This document shows, piece by piece, positions 22,256 to 60,961 of a stretch of 64,000 nucleotides of DNA; the first letter of the stretch is position 1; every line of letters begins with the position of its first letter. The stretch lies in assembly GCA_937880755.1 (NCBI GenBank), contig CALGRX010000020.1:149645-213644 (forward strand), written 5' to 3'. The DNA comes from an uncultured Clostridia bacterium. GTDB lineage: Bacteria > Bacillota > Clostridia > Christensenellales > UBA3700. The notes under the pieces were generated by a model, which saw only the letters and a program-made list of their open reading frames with translations, did no database searches and was not told the DNA's origin. The position numbers and the translations under genes are program-made.

Positions 22256-22612
22256 TTAAACGTACTTTCCGTTGGACGTGTTGAGATTGTTGACCCCCGT
22301 CATCATTACTTCGTTGACGTAAGGGTTGACGATGCGATAAAAGACGATTTTGCCCACCCGCCTATCCGCCACTATTCGAGCGTCGCGGAGAAGTTTGAGC
22401 TGATGAGATACGGTGGTTTGGTTGAGTCCCAACAATATGCACACGTCACATACGCAAAGTTCCGTCACGGCAAGCACCGACAGTATCTTGAGCCTCGTGC
22501 TGTCGCTAAATATAAAATAAAAATCGGCTATTCCCTTGACAGCTCCGTTGGGCGGAATGTAGCTCCTAATAGATTGTTCTTCACTCTCCGTCAACGTCAA
22601 ACACCCGCGCAT
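22256..22612 (-). CDS. ArsR/SmtB-family metalloregulator with an ELCVCDVC site
   Basis: wHTH segment LKILSVLAVTELCVCDVCILLGLNQTTVSHQLKLLRDARIV. I chose the start at MRGCL (ATG 22612), which has GGAGG 4 nt upstream; the longer track ORF would leave only 58 nt for two divergent promoters. Confidence 0.85.
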   Translation of the reverse strand: MRGCLTLTESEEQSIRSYIPPNGAVKGIADFYFIFSDSTRLKILSVLAVTELCVCDVCILLGLNQTTVSHQLKLLRDARIVADRRVGKIVFYRIVNPYVNEVMMTGVNNLNTSNGKYV

Positions 22613-22733: not shown

Positions 22734-22919
22734 ATGGATAATTGCTGCTACTTGTGGATTATCATCTTACTCTTAAGCTGTTGCTGTGGCGACAATGAAG
22801 GAAGATCCGGCAACAACTGTTTCTTCGGCAGAGACGGTGGATGCGACTGTTGCACGCTCATAATCTTGATACTCATCATCTGCTGCTGTTGTAGAAACGG
22901 CGACGACGACGTAATCTAA
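22734..22919 (+). CDS. Cysteine-string mini-protein 1 (61 aa, 13 Cys)
   Basis: MDNCCYLWIIILLLSCCCGDNEGRSGNNCFFGRDGGCDCCTLIILILIICCCCRNGDDDVI. AGGAGG lies 7 nt upstream of the ATG, the gene has its own terminator, and a paralog lies at 60740-60961. Confidence 0.7.
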   Translation: MDNCCYLWIIILLLSCCCGDNEGRSGNNCFFGRDGGCDCCTLIILILIICCCCRNGDDDVI

Positions 22920-22948
22920 GATACGTATAAGATACATATTATGCTAAA

Positions 22949-23096: not shown

Positions 23097-23681
23097 TTAG
23101 CCAAATAAATCGTCTATGTTGTCGTCGTCGGGCCGAGTAGGCTCACCCCTCTTGGTGACGATGGCAACTCGCCTCGACACCAACTTAAATACTATCCTAT
23201 ACAATGGGTCGTAGGCACAAAATAGTACTACTCCCACAGCCCAAAATAACGGCTCGCTTAGTCGCCAAGAGCCTATGACTATATCGGAGATTATCAATCC
23301 CATCAACTTATAGCACGCCCAAAACGCTAAGACGAAATATGCAAGCTTAATAACCGTTATCAGTATGATTTTGACAGCTTTAGGCAAACGCAAATTATAA
23401 AAACGAAAATCTAAAAGCCACGCAACCAGAGAGTATAAGCCGAAGAATAATATAAAAGGCAGGGCTTTGATATTGCCTGCCAAAAATCCTACTGCCGACG
23501 CAACGACGTAGCTTGCGAGCGCCGACCAAAATAAGCCTTGAGTGAGAGGAAGCGATACGCATAGCGCCGATATTACGAAAAAAGCTACCTTTGCCGTAGG
23601 CAGAAACATTGCAAGCAATAGCGATATAATCGTCAATGCGGCAGATATTCCCGAAATGGCAATGCGATAGCTTCTCTTCAT
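23097..23681 (-). CDS. Polytopic membrane protein (about 5-6 TM helices) of unrecognised family
   Basis: 194 aa, hydrophobic throughout, with an acidic C-terminal tail. The ATG is 1 nt after the J-protein stop. Confidence 0.65.
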   Translation of the reverse strand: MKRSYRIAISGISAALTIISLLLAMFLPTAKVAFFVISALCVSLPLTQGLFWSALASYVVASAVGFLAGNIKALPFILFFGLYSLVAWLLDFRFYNLRLPKAVKIILITVIKLAYFVLAFWACYKLMGLIISDIVIGSWRLSEPLFWAVGVVLFCAYDPLYRIVFKLVSRRVAIVTKRGEPTRPDDDNIDDLFG

Positions 23682-23682
23682 T

Positions 23683-24324
23683 TTAGCAACAAGGTATCAA
23701 ATCTCCGCCCATACACTCGCAACAACAGTCGCAACATATGAGTGTGGAACAAGTATTGCAACAAGCTTCGTCGTTAGCGGCACGCCTTGCCTCTTGGTCG
23801 GGGCGAGAATATCCCGCTCTACCCGCCGCAGCACTACCGCTAGCTGAGCTGGCGTACTCTGCGCTTGCCCCCGATAGCACTTTGTTGAGTCTTTCTCTAG
23901 CTTGCTTATACTTTTCGTTGTCCTCGTCGAGAGTGAGGGCTATGTCGAGTTGCTTTTTGCTCTCTACGTTCCAACCGCGCTTGTGATAAATGATGGCTTG
24001 CAGATAGTGCCAATATCCGTCTCTCATCTCGATATTGTCAAGCTTAGACTGCGCCCCTTCGAGATTGCCGTCCCTAATCATATCTTCTATCTCGCCTAAG
24101 CCGTTGCCCTCCTCGGTAAAGTGGAAGTCATTGGCTTTGTCCTCTATGCATTGGTGATAGGCTCGCTCTAATTCGTCGAGTTTTTTGGCAGCCAAGTTGC
24201 CAACCTCGCCCTCTTCAAAAAGTTGAGATTGGTACTCTTCTCTAAGCCTTTCGTAGGCTTGCCTTATCTCTTCTTGCGTGGCGTCATTGTCCACACCGAG
24301 TATCAAATACGGATCTTTTTGCAC
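23683..24324 (-). CDS. J-domain protein with a C-terminal cysteine string
   Basis: The N-terminus DPYLILGVDNDATQEEIRQAYERLREEY is a J-domain helix I/II pattern. The last 27 aa, ACCNTCSTLICCDCCCECMGGDLIPCC, contain 11 Cys. The start is GTG with GGAG 9 nt upstream. Confidence 0.85.
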   Translation of the reverse strand: MQKDPYLILGVDNDATQEEIRQAYERLREEYQSQLFEEGEVGNLAAKKLDELERAYHQCIEDKANDFHFTEEGNGLGEIEDMIRDGNLEGAQSKLDNIEMRDGYWHYLQAIIYHKRGWNVESKKQLDIALTLDEDNEKYKQARERLNKVLSGASAEYASSASGSAAAGRAGYSRPDQEARRAANDEACCNTCSTLICCDCCCECMGGDLIPCC

Positions 24325-25175
24325 TTAGTTTCACTCCTTAACAGTTCTTTGGTTTTGGTTAGTAAGCCGTACCACAATACGTTGGTGATTACCCCCTCGT
24401 ATCGGGCAATATTTAGATTGTCAAACGCCTTGTTGATAGCGTCGTAACACGACATAAATAGCAGTTGGAGTTCCTCAGACTTATCCTTGAGGAATGTCGC
24501 CTTGTCGGTATAGCTATAATCTGCGAGAAATACGTTGTATTTGCCACCCTTGAAGTCGTCGTCTATATCGTCGAGAGCGTCGGCACAGTACACCCATTTG
24601 CCCACGTTATACATTACGTCGCCAACGTGCGAATTATAATCGTCGCCCGATAGCTCGGCAGCAATCTCCTTCATAATCTCGGCAAAGGCGTCGGCTACGA
24701 TATCCGCTCCCGCTTGATTGTTTTTTTCCATAATCCTTAGACGCTCGTAGCCCTCCGCTACGATTTCGTCCACCTTGGGAAGATTGGTTTTGGCTCTCTT
24801 GTAATGTCTATTGAGCACCGCCTTGTTCACAAATCTGGCTTTGGCGGAATGCTCGTCGTATATATCGTCGACAAGTTTATAGTGTGCAAGTATGGTGTTG
24901 GTATCCACGATAGCACTCATTAGGTCGTTGTGCTTGACAATGCTCTTCTTTTTGATAGGATTGAGTATACAAGTCTCGTCGGCAAACTCCACCTGTCTAT
25001 CACAAATAGCGTGCATGAACACAGCCAAAAAGGTGACGTCGTAGTTGGTGGTAAATCTCATCAACTGTCCGCACTTTTTGCCTATAGACTTGCACAATCC
25101 GCAATAAAATGCCTTGTAGACGGTGTAGTCTTTGATAAACATATTGGGTTTGTCTGGCACAACGTATCCGAACAT
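24303..25175 (-). CDS. DUF5685 family protein
   Basis: 290 aa beginning MFGYVVPDKPNMFIKDYTVYKAFYCGLCKSIGKKCG, which is DUF5685-like. Its ATG shares one nucleotide with the trpS TAA (TAATG). Confidence 0.7.
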   Translation of the reverse strand: MFGYVVPDKPNMFIKDYTVYKAFYCGLCKSIGKKCGQLMRFTTNYDVTFLAVFMHAICDRQVEFADETCILNPIKKKSIVKHNDLMSAIVDTNTILAHYKLVDDIYDEHSAKARFVNKAVLNRHYKRAKTNLPKVDEIVAEGYERLRIMEKNNQAGADIVADAFAEIMKEIAAELSGDDYNSHVGDVMYNVGKWVYCADALDDIDDDFKGGKYNVFLADYSYTDKATFLKDKSEELQLLFMSCYDAINKAFDNLNIARYEGVITNVLWYGLLTKTKELLRSETKCKKIRI

Positions 25176-26176
25176 TAAATCAAAACGTATCCTATTGCTT
25201 TCTTAAATTCGGCAAGTTTTTTGCTTGCCATCTCCGACGCCCTTTCCTTTCCTTCTCTCGCTACTTGCATAAGGTAGTCCTTATTGTTCATAAGGTCGTC
25301 GTATCTCTTTCTGAACGGTCTGAGCATCTCGATTACGCTATCCGCTACGGCAAGCTTGAGGTCGCCGTATCTCATACCTTGGCAATCCTGTTGCACTTGC
25401 TCGATACTCTTGTTAGAAGTTGCCGCAAGAATGGTGAGTAGGTTGCTAATACCCGGTTTGTTGTCGGGGTCGTAGATTATCTCGCAACCACTGTCGGTGA
25501 CTGCTTTCTTAAACTTCTTGAGAATAACCGACTCTTCGTCAAGTACGCTTACGACCGCTCCCGGGGTCGGGTCGGACTTGCTCATCTTGGCAGTAGGGTC
25601 TTGCAAACTCATAATCTTAGCGCCTACCTTGTTAATGATAGGCTCGGGCACGGTGAAGATGTCGCCGTAGATATTGTTGACTCTCACCGCTATATCTCTT
25701 GCTATCTCCAAGTGTTGCAGTTGGTCTACTCCTACGGGTACGTAGTCGCTACCGTAGAGCAATATGTCCGCCGCCATTAGTACGGGATAGTCCATAAGTC
25801 CCATATTGATATTGTCGCTATGCTTTGACGACTTGTCCTTAAATTGCGTCATCCTATTCATCTCGCCAACGTAGGTGTAGCAGTTGAGAAGCCAAGCAAG
25901 CTCGCTGTGCTCGTGCACGTGCGATTGAAAATACAATATTGACTTGTCCTTGTCTATGCCCATAGCCATGAGCAATGCAAAAAAGCTCATTGCGTTGTCG
26001 TAAAATTGCTTAGGGTCTTGTCTGACGGTGATGGTGTGAAGGTCGGCAAGCGCAAACAAGCATTGGTTGTCGTCGCTATCTTGAATGGCGCGCCAATTAT
26101 TTACAGCACCGATAAAGTTGCCTAAAGTCATGATGCCCGACGGCTGTATCGCACTATAAATAATCTTCTTTGACAT
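25175..26176 (-). CDS. trpS: Tryptophan--tRNA ligase
   Basis: Class I aaRS with a KMSKS motif. I chose the start at MSKKIIYSAIQPSG (ATG 26176), which has GGAG 7 nt upstream. Confidence 0.95.
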   Translation of the reverse strand: MSKKIIYSAIQPSGIMTLGNFIGAVNNWRAIQDSDDNQCLFALADLHTITVRQDPKQFYDNAMSFFALLMAMGIDKDKSILYFQSHVHEHSELAWLLNCYTYVGEMNRMTQFKDKSSKHSDNINMGLMDYPVLMAADILLYGSDYVPVGVDQLQHLEIARDIAVRVNNIYGDIFTVPEPIINKVGAKIMSLQDPTAKMSKSDPTPGAVVSVLDEESVILKKFKKAVTDSGCEIIYDPDNKPGISNLLTILAATSNKSIEQVQQDCQGMRYGDLKLAVADSVIEMLRPFRKRYDDLMNNKDYLMQVAREGKERASEMASKKLAEFKKAIGYVLI

Positions 26177-26296
26177 ATATTGTCTCCTTTTTTGTTTCAA
26201 ACTATAAAAATAATAACATATATTATATAAAAAGTAAAGAGCATATCGTCGATACGCTCTTGCTTAGAGTAATTTTTTCGTCAAATAATCGGTAAG

Positions 26297-27828: not shown

Positions 27829-28902
27829 TCAATCGTTCTCTACTTGCGACAACAGTTGATTTTGGTTGGCAAGTTGCAGCGCGTCTATCATCTCGAACAA
27901 GTCCCCGTCCATAAAGTCGAGCAAGTTGTACATTGTAAAGCCTATTCTATGGTCTGTAACGCGGTTTTGAGGGAAGTTGTAGGTCCTTATCTTTTCGCTT
28001 CTATCACCCGTACCTATCTGCGACTTGCGGTTGGCGGCGTATTCGCTGTCCGCCTTGCTTTGATAATATTCGTAAAGTCGGCTCTTGAGTACCGTCATTG
28101 CCCTTTCGCGGTTTTTGATTTGGCTACGCTCGTCTTGGCTGGTCACCACTATACCCGTAGGCAAGTGAGTTATACGCACTGCGCTATCCGTCTTGTTGAC
28201 GTGCTGTCCGCCCGCACCGCCACTACGGTAAGTGTCGATTTTGAGGTCCTTGTCGAGTATCTCTATATCGATATTCTCCACCTCGGGCAATACCGCAACC
28301 GTAACGGTGGAAGTATGAACCCTGCCTTGCGACTCAGTCTCGGGTACGCGTTGCACACGGTGTACTCCGCTCTCGAATTTGAGCTTGCTAAACGCGCCTA
28401 CGCCGCTTATCATAAAGGTCACTTCTTTTGCGCCGCCAAGCTCGGTGTAGTTCATATCAATCTCTTGGACTTTCCACCTCATACGCTCGGCGTAACGCAT
28501 ATACATACGCACGATTTGCGCACCGAACAAGCCTGCCTCTTCTCCGCCTGCACCCGCTCTGACTTCAATGATGACGTTTTTGTCGTCGTTGGGGTCAACG
28601 GGCAATAGCGCGATTTTGATTTCTCCGATTAGAGCCTCTTCGTCCTTGTTGGCTTGCGACAACTCTTCTTTGGCAAGCATCACCATATCTCTGTCGCTAC
28701 CGTCGTCGATAATCTCTTTGCATTCCTCTATCGTTGCCGTAAGGGCAAGATACTTCTTATACAATTCTACGGGACGCGTGAGGTCGCTATGCTCCTTGCA
28801 AAGCTTCTGCCACCTCGCTTGGTCGGCAATTATCGTCGGGTCGGAGATGAGTTGAGTGAGTTCTTCAAACCTCTCCAACATCTTTTTTAGTCTTTCAAAC
28901 AT
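27829..28902 (-). CDS. prfA: Peptide chain release factor 1
   Basis: 357 aa with the GGQ motif ([10 protein letters not shown]) and the PET tripeptide region ([10 protein letters not shown], at the RF1 PxT position). It overlaps the upstream prmC fusion by 16 nt. Confidence 0.97.
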
Positions 28903-58601: not shown

Positions 58602-59393
58602 TTATTCTTTTGCTTGGTTTTGGTTGTTCATATTGTAGATGAGTTTCAGTCCGTTGAGGGTGAGTACTCTATCCACTTTGTCTATTGTGTTGTCGTCGTC
58701 GTTGGACGTTATCAACTCGCTAAGTCCGCCCGTTGCAATGACTTTGGCGTCGGGGGCTTTCATCTCCTTTTTGATAGAGGCGACGATATTTTTGACTAAT
58801 CCTATAAAGCCGTATATTATGCCCGATTGCATATTGCCTATCGTAGTCTTACCTATTACGCTGTTTGGCTTGACGAGTTCGACGGTTGGCAGTTTGGCAG
58901 TGCTGTCGGTCAAAGAATTGAGCGAAGTCTTGATACCCGGGGCAATACAACCGCCCAAGAACTCTCCGCTTGCCGATATGGCGTTGAAGGTCGTTGCCGT
59001 ACCGAAGTCGATGACTATACACGGTCCGCCGTACAACTTGTATGCCGCTACCGAATTGACTATTCTGTCCGCGCCCACCTCTTGAGGATTGCTGTATTTG
59101 ATATTGAGCCCCGTCTTGGTACCCGGTCCTACTATCATAGGCTTTTTGCCCACGTAATACTCGCACGCTCTCTCGAAAGTATAATTGAGAGACGGCTGAA
59201 CCGACGACATAATGACGCCCTCGAAGTCGTCTCGGCTAAGTCCTATCTCTTCGAAGAGGTTTTTGATATATATACCTATTTCGTCCGAAGTCCTCGGCGC
59301 GGATACCGACAATCTCCAAGACGCTATCAACTTGTTGGCGTCGTACACGCCCAATTTGATATTGGTATTGCCTATATCTATTACTAAAATCAT
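58602..59393 (-). CDS. coaX: Type III pantothenate kinase
   Basis: 263 aa with MILVIDIGNTNIKLGVY and GADR motifs. Confidence 0.93.
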   Translation of the reverse strand: MILVIDIGNTNIKLGVYDANKLIASWRLSVSAPRTSDEIGIYIKNLFEEIGLSRDDFEGVIMSSVQPSLNYTFERACEYYVGKKPMIVGPGTKTGLNIKYSNPQEVGADRIVNSVAAYKLYGGPCIVIDFGTATTFNAISASGEFLGGCIAPGIKTSLNSLTDSTAKLPTVELVKPNSVIGKTTIGNMQSGIIYGFIGLVKNIVASIKKEMKAPDAKVIATGGLSELITSNDDDNTIDKVDRVLTLNGLKLIYNMNNQNQAKE

Positions 59394-60013
59394 ACCGTCG
59401 TCTTCCTGTCAATTTTTTTGAGTGCAAACACTATTGCGGGCACGATGATAGGAAAAGCTATCACTTCTATGACGAAGTTGACGCTAAATAGCGTTGCTAT
59501 CCATTGCGCGCTGATTGCCGTGCTTCCAAAGGTCTGTCCCTTGAAGAGCAACAACGCCATCAAGCCCACCAGCAAGGTGTTGGTCAAAACCCCGCACGCA
59601 GTAGCCGTTACGCTTATCGCCTTTTCGCTGATAAATAGTTGCTTTTTGTTGAGCAAAACCTCTTGTCCGTCCACCTCGCCGTACTTAGGTCTAAGTAATT
59701 TGGAGAGCAAGTGATATACCGCATAGGCTACTATGCCTATCATCACTCTCGGCAAAATGCACACCAACGGGTTTTGGAATACGGGCGCTAGCAACGCTCC
59801 CGCCTTTACGGTGTACCAAGATATCAGGTTGGTAACCCCGAGCAAGAGTCCCGTAACTATGGTCATCTTGAGATCTTCCATCTGTGCCATTATCAATACG
59901 GGCAGTATCATCAGCCCCAAAGTAACGGGTCCGAATGAGATTGGCACGAAATTGAAGATAATAATCAATGCCAACATAAAAGCCATTAAGGCTATGCGCT
60001 TAGATTTTTTCAT
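59390..60013 (-). CDS. ECF transporter S-component, possibly pantothenate-specific (PanT-like)
   Basis: 207 aa from MKKSKRIALMAF (ATG 60013, GAGGTG upstream), with about 6 TM helices. It overlaps coaX by 4 nt. Confidence 0.6.
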   Translation of the reverse strand: MKKSKRIALMAFMLALIIIFNFVPISFGPVTLGLMILPVLIMAQMEDLKMTIVTGLLLGVTNLISWYTVKAGALLAPVFQNPLVCILPRVMIGIVAYAVYHLLSKLLRPKYGEVDGQEVLLNKKQLFISEKAISVTATACGVLTNTLLVGLMALLLFKGQTFGSTAISAQWIATLFSVNFVIEVIAFPIIVPAIVFALKKIDRKTTV

Positions 60014-60365
60014 ACACACCTCGCTTGAATTCCTAATAAGGATATCCATCTATGTAAAAAATTATTTTGCAAGTATCCAATCTTACGTATCGGTACTTGG
60101 CATTATTATATCAACAAAGGCACGCCTTTTGCAAGCAATATTATAAAATAATATATATCAATTATGCCACCCACTCCGTCTAATAAACCATGATAGGCGC
60201 AATTTGGCTGAGTCATAGGCTTTTCACTTCCGCCAAAGCCAAAAAATCAAGTAGCAACAAAAAAAGTGAGATGACGATTAAAATACGCAAAGTTTCGTTA
60301 TAAAGAAAAAATCAACGGCTAAATTGCCGCCGAAAATCTAATATATTGCACTATCAGCTCTACAC

Positions 60366-60650
60366 TTACTTTTCGATTGGTTGATTTTGAGTAATAGAGT
60401 CTTGTGCTTCGCTTTGGCATGCACTAAGCTTTTTGTTGTAAAAAGCATAGTTGATTGCATCCCATATCAAGTCAACGACAGCTATCGGCAACATTATGCA
60501 AAGGCTATATTTCCAATACAGGTCGCGATAAATGGCAATGCACGCCACCCAACCTATGAATACGGTAAAGGTGATGATATACTTCCAAACTTGATAGGCT
60601 TTGGGCTTAATCGACACCGACAGCCACCATTGCAAAAAGTTGTACTTCAT
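60366..60650 (-). CDS. Small two-TM membrane protein of unknown function
   Basis: 94 aa from MKYNFLQWW (ATG 60650). A consensus promoter lies inside the track ORF's N-terminal extension, and there is no RBS. Confidence 0.55.
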   Translation of the reverse strand: MKYNFLQWWLSVSIKPKAYQVWKYIITFTVFIGWVACIAIYRDLYWKYSLCIMLPIAVVDLIWDAINYAFYNKKLSACQSEAQDSITQNQPIEK

Positions 60651-60656
60651 AATGAT

Positions 60657-60685
60657 ATTATAATTTGATAGGCGTAGATAGTCAA
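60657..60685 (-). promoter_or_regulatory. Consensus sigma-A promoter positioned for a leaderless transcript
   Basis: On the minus strand: TTGACT, a 17-nt spacer, then TATAAT. The -10 element ends 6 nt before ATG 60650. Confidence 0.5.
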
Positions 60686-60693
60686 GCATTGCA

Positions 60694-60722
60694 AGAAAAA
60701 ACACGCCGATTGCTCGGCGTGT
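60694..60722 (-). terminator. Terminator of cysteine-string gene 2
   Basis: On the minus strand: ACACGCCG-agcaat-CGGCGTGT followed by TTTTTTCTT, starting 18 nt after the stop codon. Confidence 0.8.
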
Positions 60723-60739
60723 CCTTTATTATGTATCCG

Positions 60740-60961
60740 TTAGCAGCAGCCACAGCAGCAAAGCAACAGAATAATAGGTATGATGCAACAGATATTGCAG
60801 TTGTTGTTGCAACGTCTATCGCTCACTTCTACGTCGTCATCGGTTATTGCGCGTCTGTCGCGATTGCAGCAGCAACAGAGCAAAAGCAATACTATAAGTA
60901 AGCAACAGCAGTTGTTACCGCAACCGTTATTATTGTTATAACCTCCACCAAAGCAATTCAT
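60740..60961 (-). CDS. Cysteine-string mini-protein 2 (73 aa, 18 Cys)
   Basis: MNCFGGGYNNNNGCGNNCCCLLIVLLLLCCCCNRDRRAITDDDVEVSDRRCNNNCNICCIIPIILLLCCCGCC. GGAGG lies 5 nt upstream, and the gene is monocistronic with its own terminator. Confidence 0.7.
   Translation of the reverse strand: MNCFGGGYNNNNGCGNNCCCLLIVLLLLCCCCNRDRRAITDDDVEVSDRRCNNNCNICCIIPIILLLCCCGCC

Follow-up and report, generated by a model that had tools for sequence, protein, structure and literature searches.

The window, i.e., the whole 64 kb stretch of DNA that was analyzed, harbors on its minus strand an operon composed of trpS, a DUF5685 gene, a gene for a J-like protein and a gene for a membrane protein. The elements of this operon and its upstream region are as follows:

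26261-26237, minus strand: terminator-like hairpin 3' of thrC (consensus scan only)
26238-26210, minus strand: promoter-like -35/-10 pair with TG, overlapping the hairpin 3' of thrC (consensus scan only)
25175-26176, minus strand: trpS, tryptophanyl-tRNA synthetase, 333 aa (Pfam tRNA-synt_1b, E 6.7e-68; also 333 aa according to an independent gene caller)
24303-25175, minus strand: DUF5685 protein, 290 aa, soluble and all-alpha (Pfam PF18937, E 1.1e-73)
23683-24324, minus strand: J-like protein, 213 aa, GTG start with AAGGAG 9 nt upstream
23097-23681, minus strand: small polytopic membrane protein, 194 aa, 5-6 TM

The translational coupling put forward in the original prediction was confirmed at all three junctions, namely a TAATG overlap in which the trpS stop and the DUF5685 start share position 25175, a 22-nt overlap of the DUF5685 and J-like genes (24303-24324) and a 1-nt gap (23682) in front of the membrane-protein gene. 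Judging from its sequence, the element at 26210..26261 is likely the start of the trpS-DUF5685-J-membrane transcript. An Rfam search of 20-30 kb found no element there, and no T-box before trpS.

The operon contains the Christensenellales version of a Clostridia-wide trio, tightly conserved and as yet uncharacterized, that encodes DUF5685, a J/TPR protein and a membrane protein. A DNA scan for the C-terminal motif ("tail") of the J-protein yielded 120 loci across Clostridia. Instead of showing independent distributions, J-protein and DUF5685 co-occur near-perfectly: DUF5685 lies directly upstream in 93/93 tail-bearing genes with enough upstream sequence, and the complete trio was found in 72/76 Clostridium loci chosen by DUF5685 alone, including those of botulinum, sporogenes and tyrobutyricum. 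For the latter scan a 13-sequence alignment was used, the 42-sequence one being too divergent for locus finding. The membrane gene follows downstream in 103/109 tail-bearing loci. Tail and gene order recur in >250 loci, a conservation that rules out a chance operon.

Two sets of Christensenellales-type loci, 31 and 80 in number, keep the order trpS-DUF5685-J(-membrane), including the 22-nt overlap. Conservation of the trpS-DUF5685 junction extends over these loci, but not to other Clostridia, where leuS or uvrA can be found as neighbors; the flanks consist of housekeeping genes and are otherwise not conserved. Within the Christensenellales lineage, the cassette has become part of the trpS operon, and HPD has disappeared from the J-domain. 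The constant member of the cassette is DUF5685, as the J gene is missing from two loci that feature DUF5685 and the membrane gene (L280, L288), and the membrane gene is missing in one Christensenellales subclade.

The J-like protein can be divided into four parts:

24130..24324, minus strand: J-like domain, residues 1-65, J fold without HPD, loop reading YQSQLFEEGEVG
23848..24099, minus strand: TPR-like helical domain, residues 76-159 (AF2 pLDDT 95-98; weak Pfam TPR_2 match)
23767..23847, minus strand: low-complexity linker, residues 160-186, predicted to be disordered (pLDDT <50 for 162-183)
23686..23766, minus strand: C-terminal Cys motif ACCNTCSTLICCDCCCECMGGDLIPCC, residues 187-213, 11 Cys in 27 aa

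A J-domain had been predicted for the N-terminus, and this assignment stands with respect to the fold. Residues 1-65 were modeled by AF2 with pLDDT >90, and Foldseek superimposed them on J-domains with an rmsd of 1.9-2.5 A over ~56 residues at 36-44% identity, e.g., on DnaJ of Thermus thermophilus with ~2.4 A over 56 residues. According to this model, the domain is a four-helix J-domain fold. At the sequence level, however, Pfam DnaJ (PF00226) remained below threshold (25.6 bits, cutoff 27.8; profile positions 1-28 of 63), and HPD is absent from the window protein as well as from 120/120 close homologues, with helix II being acidic. In the Christensenellales clade, F-x-EGE-x-G is conserved in the loop of the domain. 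Since HPD is needed for Hsp70 stimulation by J-domains and was lost in this copy, the protein is no canonical DnaK/Hsp70 activator. The suggested function as dedicated Hsp70 co-chaperone consequently does not apply to the window copy and its 120 close homologues, whereas most other Clostridia orthologues keep KYHPD (87/118 tail-bearing orthologues and 73/73 J proteins of the Clostridium set). The predicted helical middle region is indeed helical and could be specified as a TPR domain, its Foldseek matches being TPR co-chaperone domains, e.g., those of SGT, Sec72, PP5 and Cyp40. It is followed by the linker, which represents the least conserved part of the J-protein.

The tail, whose 11 Cys in 27 aa were confirmed, is far from being poorly conserved among orthologues. 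In fact, it is the best-conserved region of the protein, with a mean column identity of 0.75 vs. 0.63 for the J domain. Its family consensus, C-x2-C-x2-L-x-C-x-D-C-C-C-E-C-x-G-G-D-L-I-x-C-C, is kept in fixed register and is always terminal (C at -2 in 108/108, C at -1 in 104/108). In several Clostridium species the number of Cys is down to 7, with CCC being replaced by S-L-C or T-I-C. No Trp is conserved in the last 17 residues, and a W at -18 appears in some clades only; the nucleophile conserved in this region is Cys. The motif was found exclusively on the cassette J-protein and exclusively beside DUF5685; searches of Pfam and NCBIfam gave no match to known Cys domains. AF2 represents the tail as a low-confidence single helix (pLDDT 44-68). 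The tail was retained in several lineages from which HPD disappeared, which makes its role independent of DnaK.

According to the original prediction, this protein represents a palmitoylated Hsp70 co-chaperone resembling the cysteine string protein (CSP/DNAJC5), which handles or anchors cysteine-string mini-proteins, possibly during spore morphogenesis. As in DNAJC5, a J-fold is in fact combined with a segment of very high Cys density, whose presumed role is membrane association, and the only Cys-dense stretches of the window besides the J-protein tail belong to two mini-proteins, one of them located 0.2 kb from the membrane gene. However, CSP has HPD and carries its string of about 14 Cys in the interior of the protein, followed by more residues toward the C-terminus; this string is S-palmitoylated by DHHC enzymes. 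Neither DHHC enzymes nor any other S-palmitoyltransferase family is known from bacteria. The bacterial protein differs in featuring a TPR domain, a disordered tether and a strictly terminal Cys motif, which keeps a fixed register with D, E, GG and D as invariant positions rather than forming a loose string for palmitoylation, and the copy in this genome is devoid of HPD. The resemblance to DNAJC5 is therefore an analogy, with homology limited to the J fold. The link to the mini-proteins did not hold either, as the distributions are independent: the adjoining mini-protein, for which Pfam and NCBIfam gave no match, is confined to the closest relatives and invariably accompanied by an ArsR/SmtB regulator next to it, whereas the trio is spread over the entire class. 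Homology of tail and mini-proteins was likewise rejected, the latter being lineage-restricted and built of membrane-like repeats of the type CC-(9-11 hydrophobic)-CCCC. A connection to sporulation found no support in the gene context, which is of a housekeeping nature. Consequently, this model is already largely refuted through the independent phyletic distributions, and we consider it very improbable.

Regarding DUF5685, the following features appeared relevant:

25071..25103, minus strand: CGLCKSIGKKC, residues 25-35; C25 and C28 invariant family-wide, C35 in the Christensenellales-type clade only
24969-24971, minus strand: C69, the third universal Cys (alignments of 91 and 42 diverse sequences)
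24855..24869, minus strand: first acidic motif D103-D-I-Y-D107, with D103 and D107 invariant (DxxxD), at the C-terminal end of helix 84-108
24534..24581, minus strand: second acidic motif D199-A-x-D-D203-x3-D207...N214, with D199, D203, D207 and N214 invariant

The window protein matches PF18937 over almost its entire length (248.5 bits, above the gathering score, profile positions 1-271 of 272), as do 42/42 diverse members of this family, which comprises 5175 clusters at 50% identity. A Pfam scan of the 42 members provided no polyprenyl_synt, SQS_PSY or terpene synthase match at E <= 0.1; a DUF2600 match in one of them (E 0.028) and a Cap4_nuclease match (E 0.054) were dismissed as noise. PDB sequence searches with two DUF5685 profiles gave only designed helical repeats, i.e., composition artefacts. 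None of the examined loci contains a polyprenyl synthase gene, and the literature on DUF5685, the tail sequence and the C. botulinum identifiers amounted to one passing mention and nothing functional.

The AF2 model of DUF5685 (pLDDT 91.5, pTM 0.90) retrieved from the PDB, as top Foldseek matches, nearly exclusively trans-prenyl diphosphate synthases, MoeN5, UbiA or terpene cyclases, with TM 0.48-0.58 and prob 0.9-1.0 but weak E-values (2e-3 to 0.1). As confidently modeled, DUF5685 is a class-I isoprenoid-synthase-like fold. It shares with MoeN5 and the trans-prenyl diphosphate synthases the all-alpha architecture and has putative metal-binding, Asp-rich motifs ending two long helices, the second motif being placed at the C-terminal end of helix 182-209 in the model. 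The i, i+4, i+8 spacing of this motif is also known from NSE/DTE, by which class-I terpene synthases bind metal, and the combination of DxxxD and DxxxDxxxD..N reads as a putative signature of Mg2+/diphosphate binding. Nevertheless, the similarity to MoeN5 and the trans-prenyl diphosphate synthases reaches a TM of ~0.5 only, at 12-17% identity and with no profile-level similarity, and the beta-hairpin and N-terminal Cys site of DUF5685 are missing from these enzymes. Besides the Asp and Asn residues of both motifs, E150, C25, C28 and C69 are invariant in the sets of 91 and 42 diverse sequences, which have 23-31% identity to the window protein. The CGLCKSIGKKC motif noted earlier is thus present, but it is conserved as such only in part, two of its Cys being universal and the third universal Cys lying outside of it.

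Three Cys, and no more, are universal in DUF5685. The same number characterizes 3-Cys [4Fe-4S] and open-site Zn enzymes and could point to a metal-related function of the trio. Here, Zn or Fe-S would be enclosed by the 7-11 Cys of the tail (e.g., as a knob of the Zn3Cys9 or Fe-S type). The three-Cys site of DUF5685 would have the J/TPR protein as its dedicated metallochaperone, redox partner or assembly factor, with anchoring or supply of the complex falling to the membrane protein. Consistently, 7-9 Cys plus D, E, GG and D are conserved in fixed register, the gene overlap suggests a stoichiometric complex, and the anaerobic hosts are generally rich in Fe-S proteins. Furthermore, J-domains have recurrently been joined to Cys-rich metal-binding modules serving a specific client, as described for HscB-IscU, Dph4/DNAJC24, DnaJ-Fer and the DnaJ zinc fingers (PMC3339945, PMC3564930). 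The tail, however, matches none of their domains, hangs on a disordered linker and is partnered with an isoprenoid-synthase-fold protein. Such a cluster would also leave the exact C-terminal ending of the motif unexplained, and repeated HPD loss fits poorly with a DnaK-driven cluster-transfer cycle. The reduction to 7 Cys and the altered CCC in several Clostridium species speak against it as well, as does, albeit weakly since AF2 ignores metals, the prediction of a single helix rather than a compact knot. Overall, we rate a metal-cluster tail as rather improbable, yet as the chief competitor of the prenylation model proposed below.

The third gene was predicted to encode a membrane protein, in agreement with the 5-6 hydrophobic spans counted here. 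Cassette membrane proteins are about 180 aa long with 5-6 TM helices, and 152 downstream ORFs form one BLAST-connected family, present after the J gene in ~94% of loci. For the window protein, only 7 word-index homologues and no Pfam or NCBIfam match were found. The N-terminal half of DUF2232 gave matches below the gathering score in 7/78 and 3/10 family members (best E 1.6e-6), and hhalign against the window's S-component-like protein aligned 24 N-terminal residues only (prob 38%).

This faint likeness to DUF2232 or S-components would suit a membrane-associated isoprenoid-lipid enzyme complex, in which DUF5685 makes or remodels an isoprenoid lipid, like MoeN5 or squalene/phytoene-synthase-type enzymes, and the membrane protein binds the lipid used or made in the reaction. 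Within such a complex, the J/TPR protein would have the part of a regulatory or holdase subunit, and its tail would serve for docking only. Both acidic motifs of DUF5685 are intact, like in true synthases, MoeN5 and UbiA are among its best fold matches, and DUF5685 is constant while the J or the membrane gene is dispensable in some loci. Yet, such a complex offers no role for the near-invariant terminal Cys motif, the strongest signal of the system, nor does it account for the restriction of the tail to the cassette J-protein beside DUF5685, and other lipid-pathway genes are absent from the neighborhood. A lipid-synthesizing complex therefore appears unlikely to us.

The trio may represent a bacterial way to lipid-anchor or metal-load a chaperone adaptor. 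For lipid anchoring, a precedent is provided by the trans-IDS-like enzymes of Firmicutes, which prenylate the product of the adjacent gene; in the case of PalQ, the acceptor has to lie precisely at the C-terminus (PMC10853753, PMC13290415). The explanation we favor, though it is still doubtful, is that DUF5685 may S-prenylate the tail of the J-protein, by analogy to ComQ/ComX. In ComQ/ComX and PalQ/PalX, the gene of an isoprenoid-synthase-fold enzyme is likewise located directly upstream of, and overlaps, the gene of a product modified near its C-terminus, comparable to the modeled isoprenoid-synthase-like fold of DUF5685 and its 22-nt overlap with the J gene. Their acceptor is, however, a Trp of short secreted RiPP pheromones, whereas the candidate considered here is the Cys motif of a cytoplasmic J/TPR protein with 200 aa. 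Moreover, DUF5685 keeps both acidic motifs, adds the three-Cys site and has no sequence-level relationship to these enzymes.

In the proposed mechanism, DUF5685 would act as a prenyl-diphosphate-using transferase alkylating one or several Cys thiols at the extreme C-terminus of the product of the overlapping downstream gene, and its three-Cys site could hold a Zn activating the thiolate. The lipidated J/TPR adaptor would then sit at the membrane together with the product of the third gene. In most Clostridia it would recruit DnaK to the membrane, and in HPD-less lineages it would serve as a TPR scaffold only. The outcome would be akin to farnesylated Ydj1 or Rab -CC proteins. Ydj1/DNAJA is a J-protein rendered membrane-active through C-terminal S-prenylation (PMC5014548), and the geranylgeranylation of Rab at -CC/-CXC also involves a terminal double-Cys acceptor. 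The eukaryotic enzymes, in contrast, have no relation to the class-I fold, being Zn-dependent heterodimers of the alpha-alpha-barrel type. A CaaX box or a homologue of Rce1 or ICMT was not detected at the locus, where the membrane protein is devoid of a Pfam match.

Several observations were counted for prenylation of the tail, namely the conservation of the cassette, the fold and invariant motifs of DUF5685, the strong conservation of the tail and its terminal position on a disordered tether, its independence from DnaK and the ComQ/PalQ precedent. Counted against it were the weak Foldseek E-values together with the missing sequence-level link to known prenyl synthases, and the fact that all characterized trans-IDS-like peptide prenyltransferases target Trp, not Cys (PMC13290415). 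In addition, ComQ lost the second Asp motif retained by DUF5685, the 7-9 fixed-register Cys with invariant D, E and GG fit a metal-cluster knob at least as well, and translational coupling suggests stoichiometric subunits rather than enzyme and substrate. The two loci without the J gene and the Christensenellales subclade without the membrane gene were also included on this side. In its most far-reaching form, this proposal would make DUF5685 the first bacterial enzyme family to S-prenylate a protein of its own cell, with a trans-IDS-fold and Mg2+/Zn-dependent enzyme acting on the terminal cysteines of the J/TPR protein, a notion we regard as somewhat improbable.

DUF5685 is a large family with no assigned function and effectively no literature. 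New here is that it is locked to two partner genes across the class Clostridia, including pathogens, industrial strains and abundant gut lineages. Also new is a testable biochemical frame for this family, consisting of the isoprenoid-synthase fold, the Mg/diphosphate signature and the three-Cys site, as predicted from model and sequence. If metal is what the tail binds, J-proteins would include a novel type of Cys-cluster domain that is linked to a hitherto unknown isoprenoid enzyme. Under either reading, the repeated loss of HPD with the tail kept offers a natural experiment on Hsp70-independent functions of J-proteins.

Should the tail turn out to be prenylated, bacteria would have a form of protein lipidation that is new, and the reach of the so far Trp-only trans-IDS-like peptide prenyltransferases would extend to cysteine and to full-size proteins, which would be of interest to both biocatalysis and chaperone biology. 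In this case, a lipid-anchored Hsp70 co-chaperone would have arisen in Clostridia, among them C. botulinum, C. sporogenes and gut Christensenellales, as an independent invention that parallels farnesylated Ydj1 or palmitoylated CSP.

The trio of genes encoding DUF5685, a J-like protein and a small polytopic membrane protein follows trpS on the same strand, and all junctions of the original prediction were confirmed, i.e., a TAATG overlap (trpS/DUF5685), a 22-nt overlap (DUF5685/J) and a 1-nt gap (J/membrane). An independent gene caller also called these four genes on the identical public contig.

26261-26210: terminator-like hairpin and promoter-like site between thrC and trpS
25175-26176, minus strand: trpS
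24303-25175, minus strand: DUF5685 gene, 290 aa (PF18937, E = 1.1e-73)
23683-24324, minus strand: J-like gene, 213 aa, GTG start with AAGGAG 9 nt upstream
23097-23681, minus strand: polytopic membrane gene, 194 aa

Based on the hairpin and promoter-like site upstream of trpS, the four genes look like a single transcript; a search for RNA families in the thrC-trpS interval found none. Elsewhere in the window (27829-28902 and upstream; positions 1-2496 of L309, the identical public contig), a 603-aa product is encoded upstream of prfA, the release factor 1 gene. Precomputed Pfam hits place DUF1385 together with a region like the PrmC methyltransferase in this product, which may be a fusion.

The trio is a functional unit found across the Clostridia. 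Scanning 185,579 species genomes with a degenerate DNA pattern for the tail motif DCCCExxGGD of the J-like protein yielded at least 120 loci, and the matches listed span Clostridium, Thermobrachium, Caloranaerobacter, Petroclostridium, Lutispora and Sedimentibacter as well as Oscillospiraceae, Acutalibacteraceae and Ruminococcus. Among these listed matches, the motif forms the C-terminal end of a ~200-aa J-protein in 118 of 120 cases, DUF5685 lies immediately upstream in all 93 loci with enough upstream flank, and a single membrane-protein family follows in 103/109. In the reverse test by DUF5685 alone (80 loci, 76 analysable; Clostridium botulinum, sporogenes, tyrobutyricum, ragsdalei, tetanomorphum and others), the full trio was present in 72 of the 76. 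The co-occurrence of DUF5685 and Cys-tailed J-proteins, on which the original prediction depended, is thus borne out from both directions. Within the Christensenellales, trpS-DUF5685-J and the 22-nt overlap are kept down to 37% DUF5685 identity, usually together with the membrane gene, which is missing downstream of DUF5685 and J in one subclade (L043, L049, L055, L058-L062, L067-L074, L077, L079). At two loci (L280 and L288, Sporanaerobium hydrogeniformans and a MAG) the J gene is lacking, and the membrane gene comes straight after DUF5685. Of the three cassette members, DUF5685 alone is constant.

No conserved flanking genes were found beyond the trio, with uvrA, leuS or a CYTH-like gene occurring in subsets. 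In 37 of the 74 Clostridium-centred loci (L229-L308), DUF5685 is preceded by a ~184-aa protein judged CYTH-like only by eye, and in ~30 leuS follows the trio; the cassette repeatedly adjoins aminoacyl-tRNA synthetase genes, namely leuS in Clostridium and trpS in Christensenellales. Five matches to the tail pattern or to DUF5685 came from bins assigned to Phascolarctobacterium, Bacteroidaceae, Thermotogota or Solirubrobacterales. One of them (L146) contains no ORF with the motif and was rejected as a chance match, while the others (L166, L169, L184, L244) each contain the complete clostridial trio, which may reflect mis-binning or transfer. Databases name the products only as “DUF5685 family protein,” “DnaJ domain-containing protein” and “hypothetical/membrane protein.” The membrane protein evolves fast and has only seven word-index homologues, yet 152/152 downstream ORFs belong to this one family. 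A minority of its members give sub-threshold matches to DUF2232, in its N-terminal half, and the N-terminus resembles an ECF S-component-like protein of the window over just 24 residues.

For the J-like protein, the J-domain proposed for its N-terminus held as a fold. The AlphaFold2 model, built from a 58-sequence alignment, confidently predicts a J-domain fold (residues 1-65) and a TPR-like domain (76-159), followed by a disordered linker (162-183) and a helical tail of low confidence. Foldseek matched the J-like fold to bona fide J-domains, among them Thermus thermophilus DnaJ (rmsd 2.4 Å over 56 residues), and the TPR-like domain to TPR co-chaperone domains. However, the Pfam DnaJ score stays below threshold, and the window protein has an acidic helix II and no HPD tripeptide, its loop reading YQSQLFEEGEVG. 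Given what is established about J-domains, Hsp70 stimulation by this copy is not expected. HPD was likewise found in 0/120 homologues, which share the replacement motif F-x-EGE-x-G, but canonical KYHPD is present in 87/118 tail-bearing orthologues among the tail-motif matches listed and in every J-protein of the Clostridium set picked by DUF5685 alone. HPD was lost in Christensenellales and, apparently as a separate event, in some Acutalibacteraceae-type lineages. HPD-less J-proteins with the same tail also occur outside Christensenellales (L117-L119, L128, L130, L132, L138, L147, L160, L166, L192, L198, L210, L211, L217), and since their replacement loops differ between lineages (e.g., KYADD, RIYSENG, EYSDDN), HPD appears to have been lost several times with the tail intact.

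Central to the J-protein is the Cys motif at the end of its flexible tether, kept despite the loss of HPD. The predicted tail was verified as ACCNTCSTLICCDCCCECMGGDLIPCC, with 11 Cys in 27 residues; the 64-kb window contains just two other Cys-dense stretches. Across 108 diverse orthologues it is the best-conserved region of the protein, as the original prediction required, with a mean column identity of 0.75 (J-domain, 0.63; linker, 0.38). Positions outside the search pattern (C-25, C-22, L-19, C-17, C-10, I-4, C-2 and C-1, counted from the C-terminus) are 93-100% conserved, and the same motif recurs in a homologue set collected without the tail pattern. It always sits at the extreme C-terminus and, among the matches listed, is carried by this J-protein family only. 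In some Clostridium the CCC is replaced by S-L-C or T-I-C, and in a few Clostridium species the tail terminates in ...CLDCLCGGGDCGGC; from these variants, the irreducible core comprises about seven Cys. C. tyrobutyricum, C. ragsdalei and related species have shortened tails (...CLDCLCGGG(D/N)C(GGC), without GGDLIxCC; L234-L236, L238, L263, L275, L284), a natural variant that helps to define the minimal motif.

Two Cys-rich mini-proteins had been linked to the trio because of a similar Cys pattern.

22734-22919, plus strand: Cys-rich mini-protein, strong RBS (AGGAGG), CC-(9-11 hydrophobic)-CCCC twice
22256-22612, minus strand: ArsR/SmtB-family regulator, divergent from the mini-protein (NF033788, E = 5.6e-23)
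60740-60961, minus strand: second mini-protein paralogue, 73 aa, CCC-hydrophobic-CCCC design

The repeated CC-(9-11 hydrophobic)-CCCC arrangement is a design unlike the tail. Moreover, the mini-protein at 22734-22919 is kept only in the six closest genomes (L001-L005, L030), always between the membrane gene and the divergent regulator, and this distribution is independent of the class-wide trio, so that the proposed link is unsupported. The arrangement with its regulator is like that of SmtB/SmtA and suggests, by analogy, a metal-responsive Cys-rich membrane peptide. On the identical contig, the public annotation has a 54-aa antisense ORF here instead (22773-22937, minus strand; L309 7388-7552); given its RBS and the conserved Cys pattern in its own frame, the mini-protein was probably missed by standard annotation. 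The second paralogue is followed downstream by a 112-aa membrane ORF (60366-60704) and is divergent from glycyl-tRNA synthetase, with an ECF S-component-like gene (59390-60049) nearby.

DUF5685 (5175 clusters at 50% identity, single-domain) is, according to its model, the enzyme-like member of the trio and combines an isoprenoid-synthase fold with a three-Cys site and intact acidic motifs. The predicted structure (pLDDT 91.5, pTM 0.90) is all-alpha with one beta-hairpin, and Foldseek against the PDB returned almost exclusively class-I isoprenoid enzymes, including octa-, hexa- and decaprenyl diphosphate synthases, the prenyltransferase MoeN5, UbiA and terpene cyclases (TM 0.48-0.58, prob ~1.0, with weak E-values of 2e-3 to 0.1); no kinship to these enzymes was found at the sequence level. 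Even in members that share no more than 23-31% identity with the window protein, Y24, C25, C28, C69, D103, D107, E150, G192, Y196, D199, D203, D207 and N214 are invariant. Of the CGLCKSIGKKC motif noted originally, the first two Cys are thus universal and the third is not. In the model, D103xxxD107 ends one long helix and D199xxxD203xxxD207 another, ~95 residues later, a pattern which we take to recall the DDxxD/DxxxD and NSE/DTE trinuclear-Mg sites of class-I enzymes.

Our best guess, still a tentative one, is that DUF5685 could transfer a prenyl group to the terminal Cys thiol(s) of the J-protein, the product of the overlapping downstream gene, which would result in a membrane-anchored J/TPR adaptor acting together with the membrane protein. 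The genetic logic would be the same as for ComQ/ComX and PalQ/PalX, where ComQ and PalQ share the isoprenoid-synthase fold, with DUF5685 as the trans-IDS-like enzyme and the product of the adjacent gene as the candidate acceptor. Such terminal-residue chemistry agrees with the strict C-terminal position of the tail and the ComQ/PalQ precedent, as the acceptor of PalQ must be C-terminal (PMC10853753). All characterised trans-IDS-like peptide prenyltransferases target Trp according to a 2026 review (PMC13290415). The main alternative, only slightly less probable, is that the tail serves the three-Cys site of DUF5685 as a Zn or Fe-S cluster knob, which fits well with many Cys being conserved in fixed register. 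Again a little less probable, the products could form a lipid-making membrane complex with the J-protein as regulatory subunit.

The module is less likely than not to represent a categorically new form of bacterial protein lipidation. Taken together, the original prediction is borne out as an observation and correct in part as an interpretation. The cassette itself is a real, widespread and uncharacterised module, for which a specific and testable biochemical hypothesis is now at hand.
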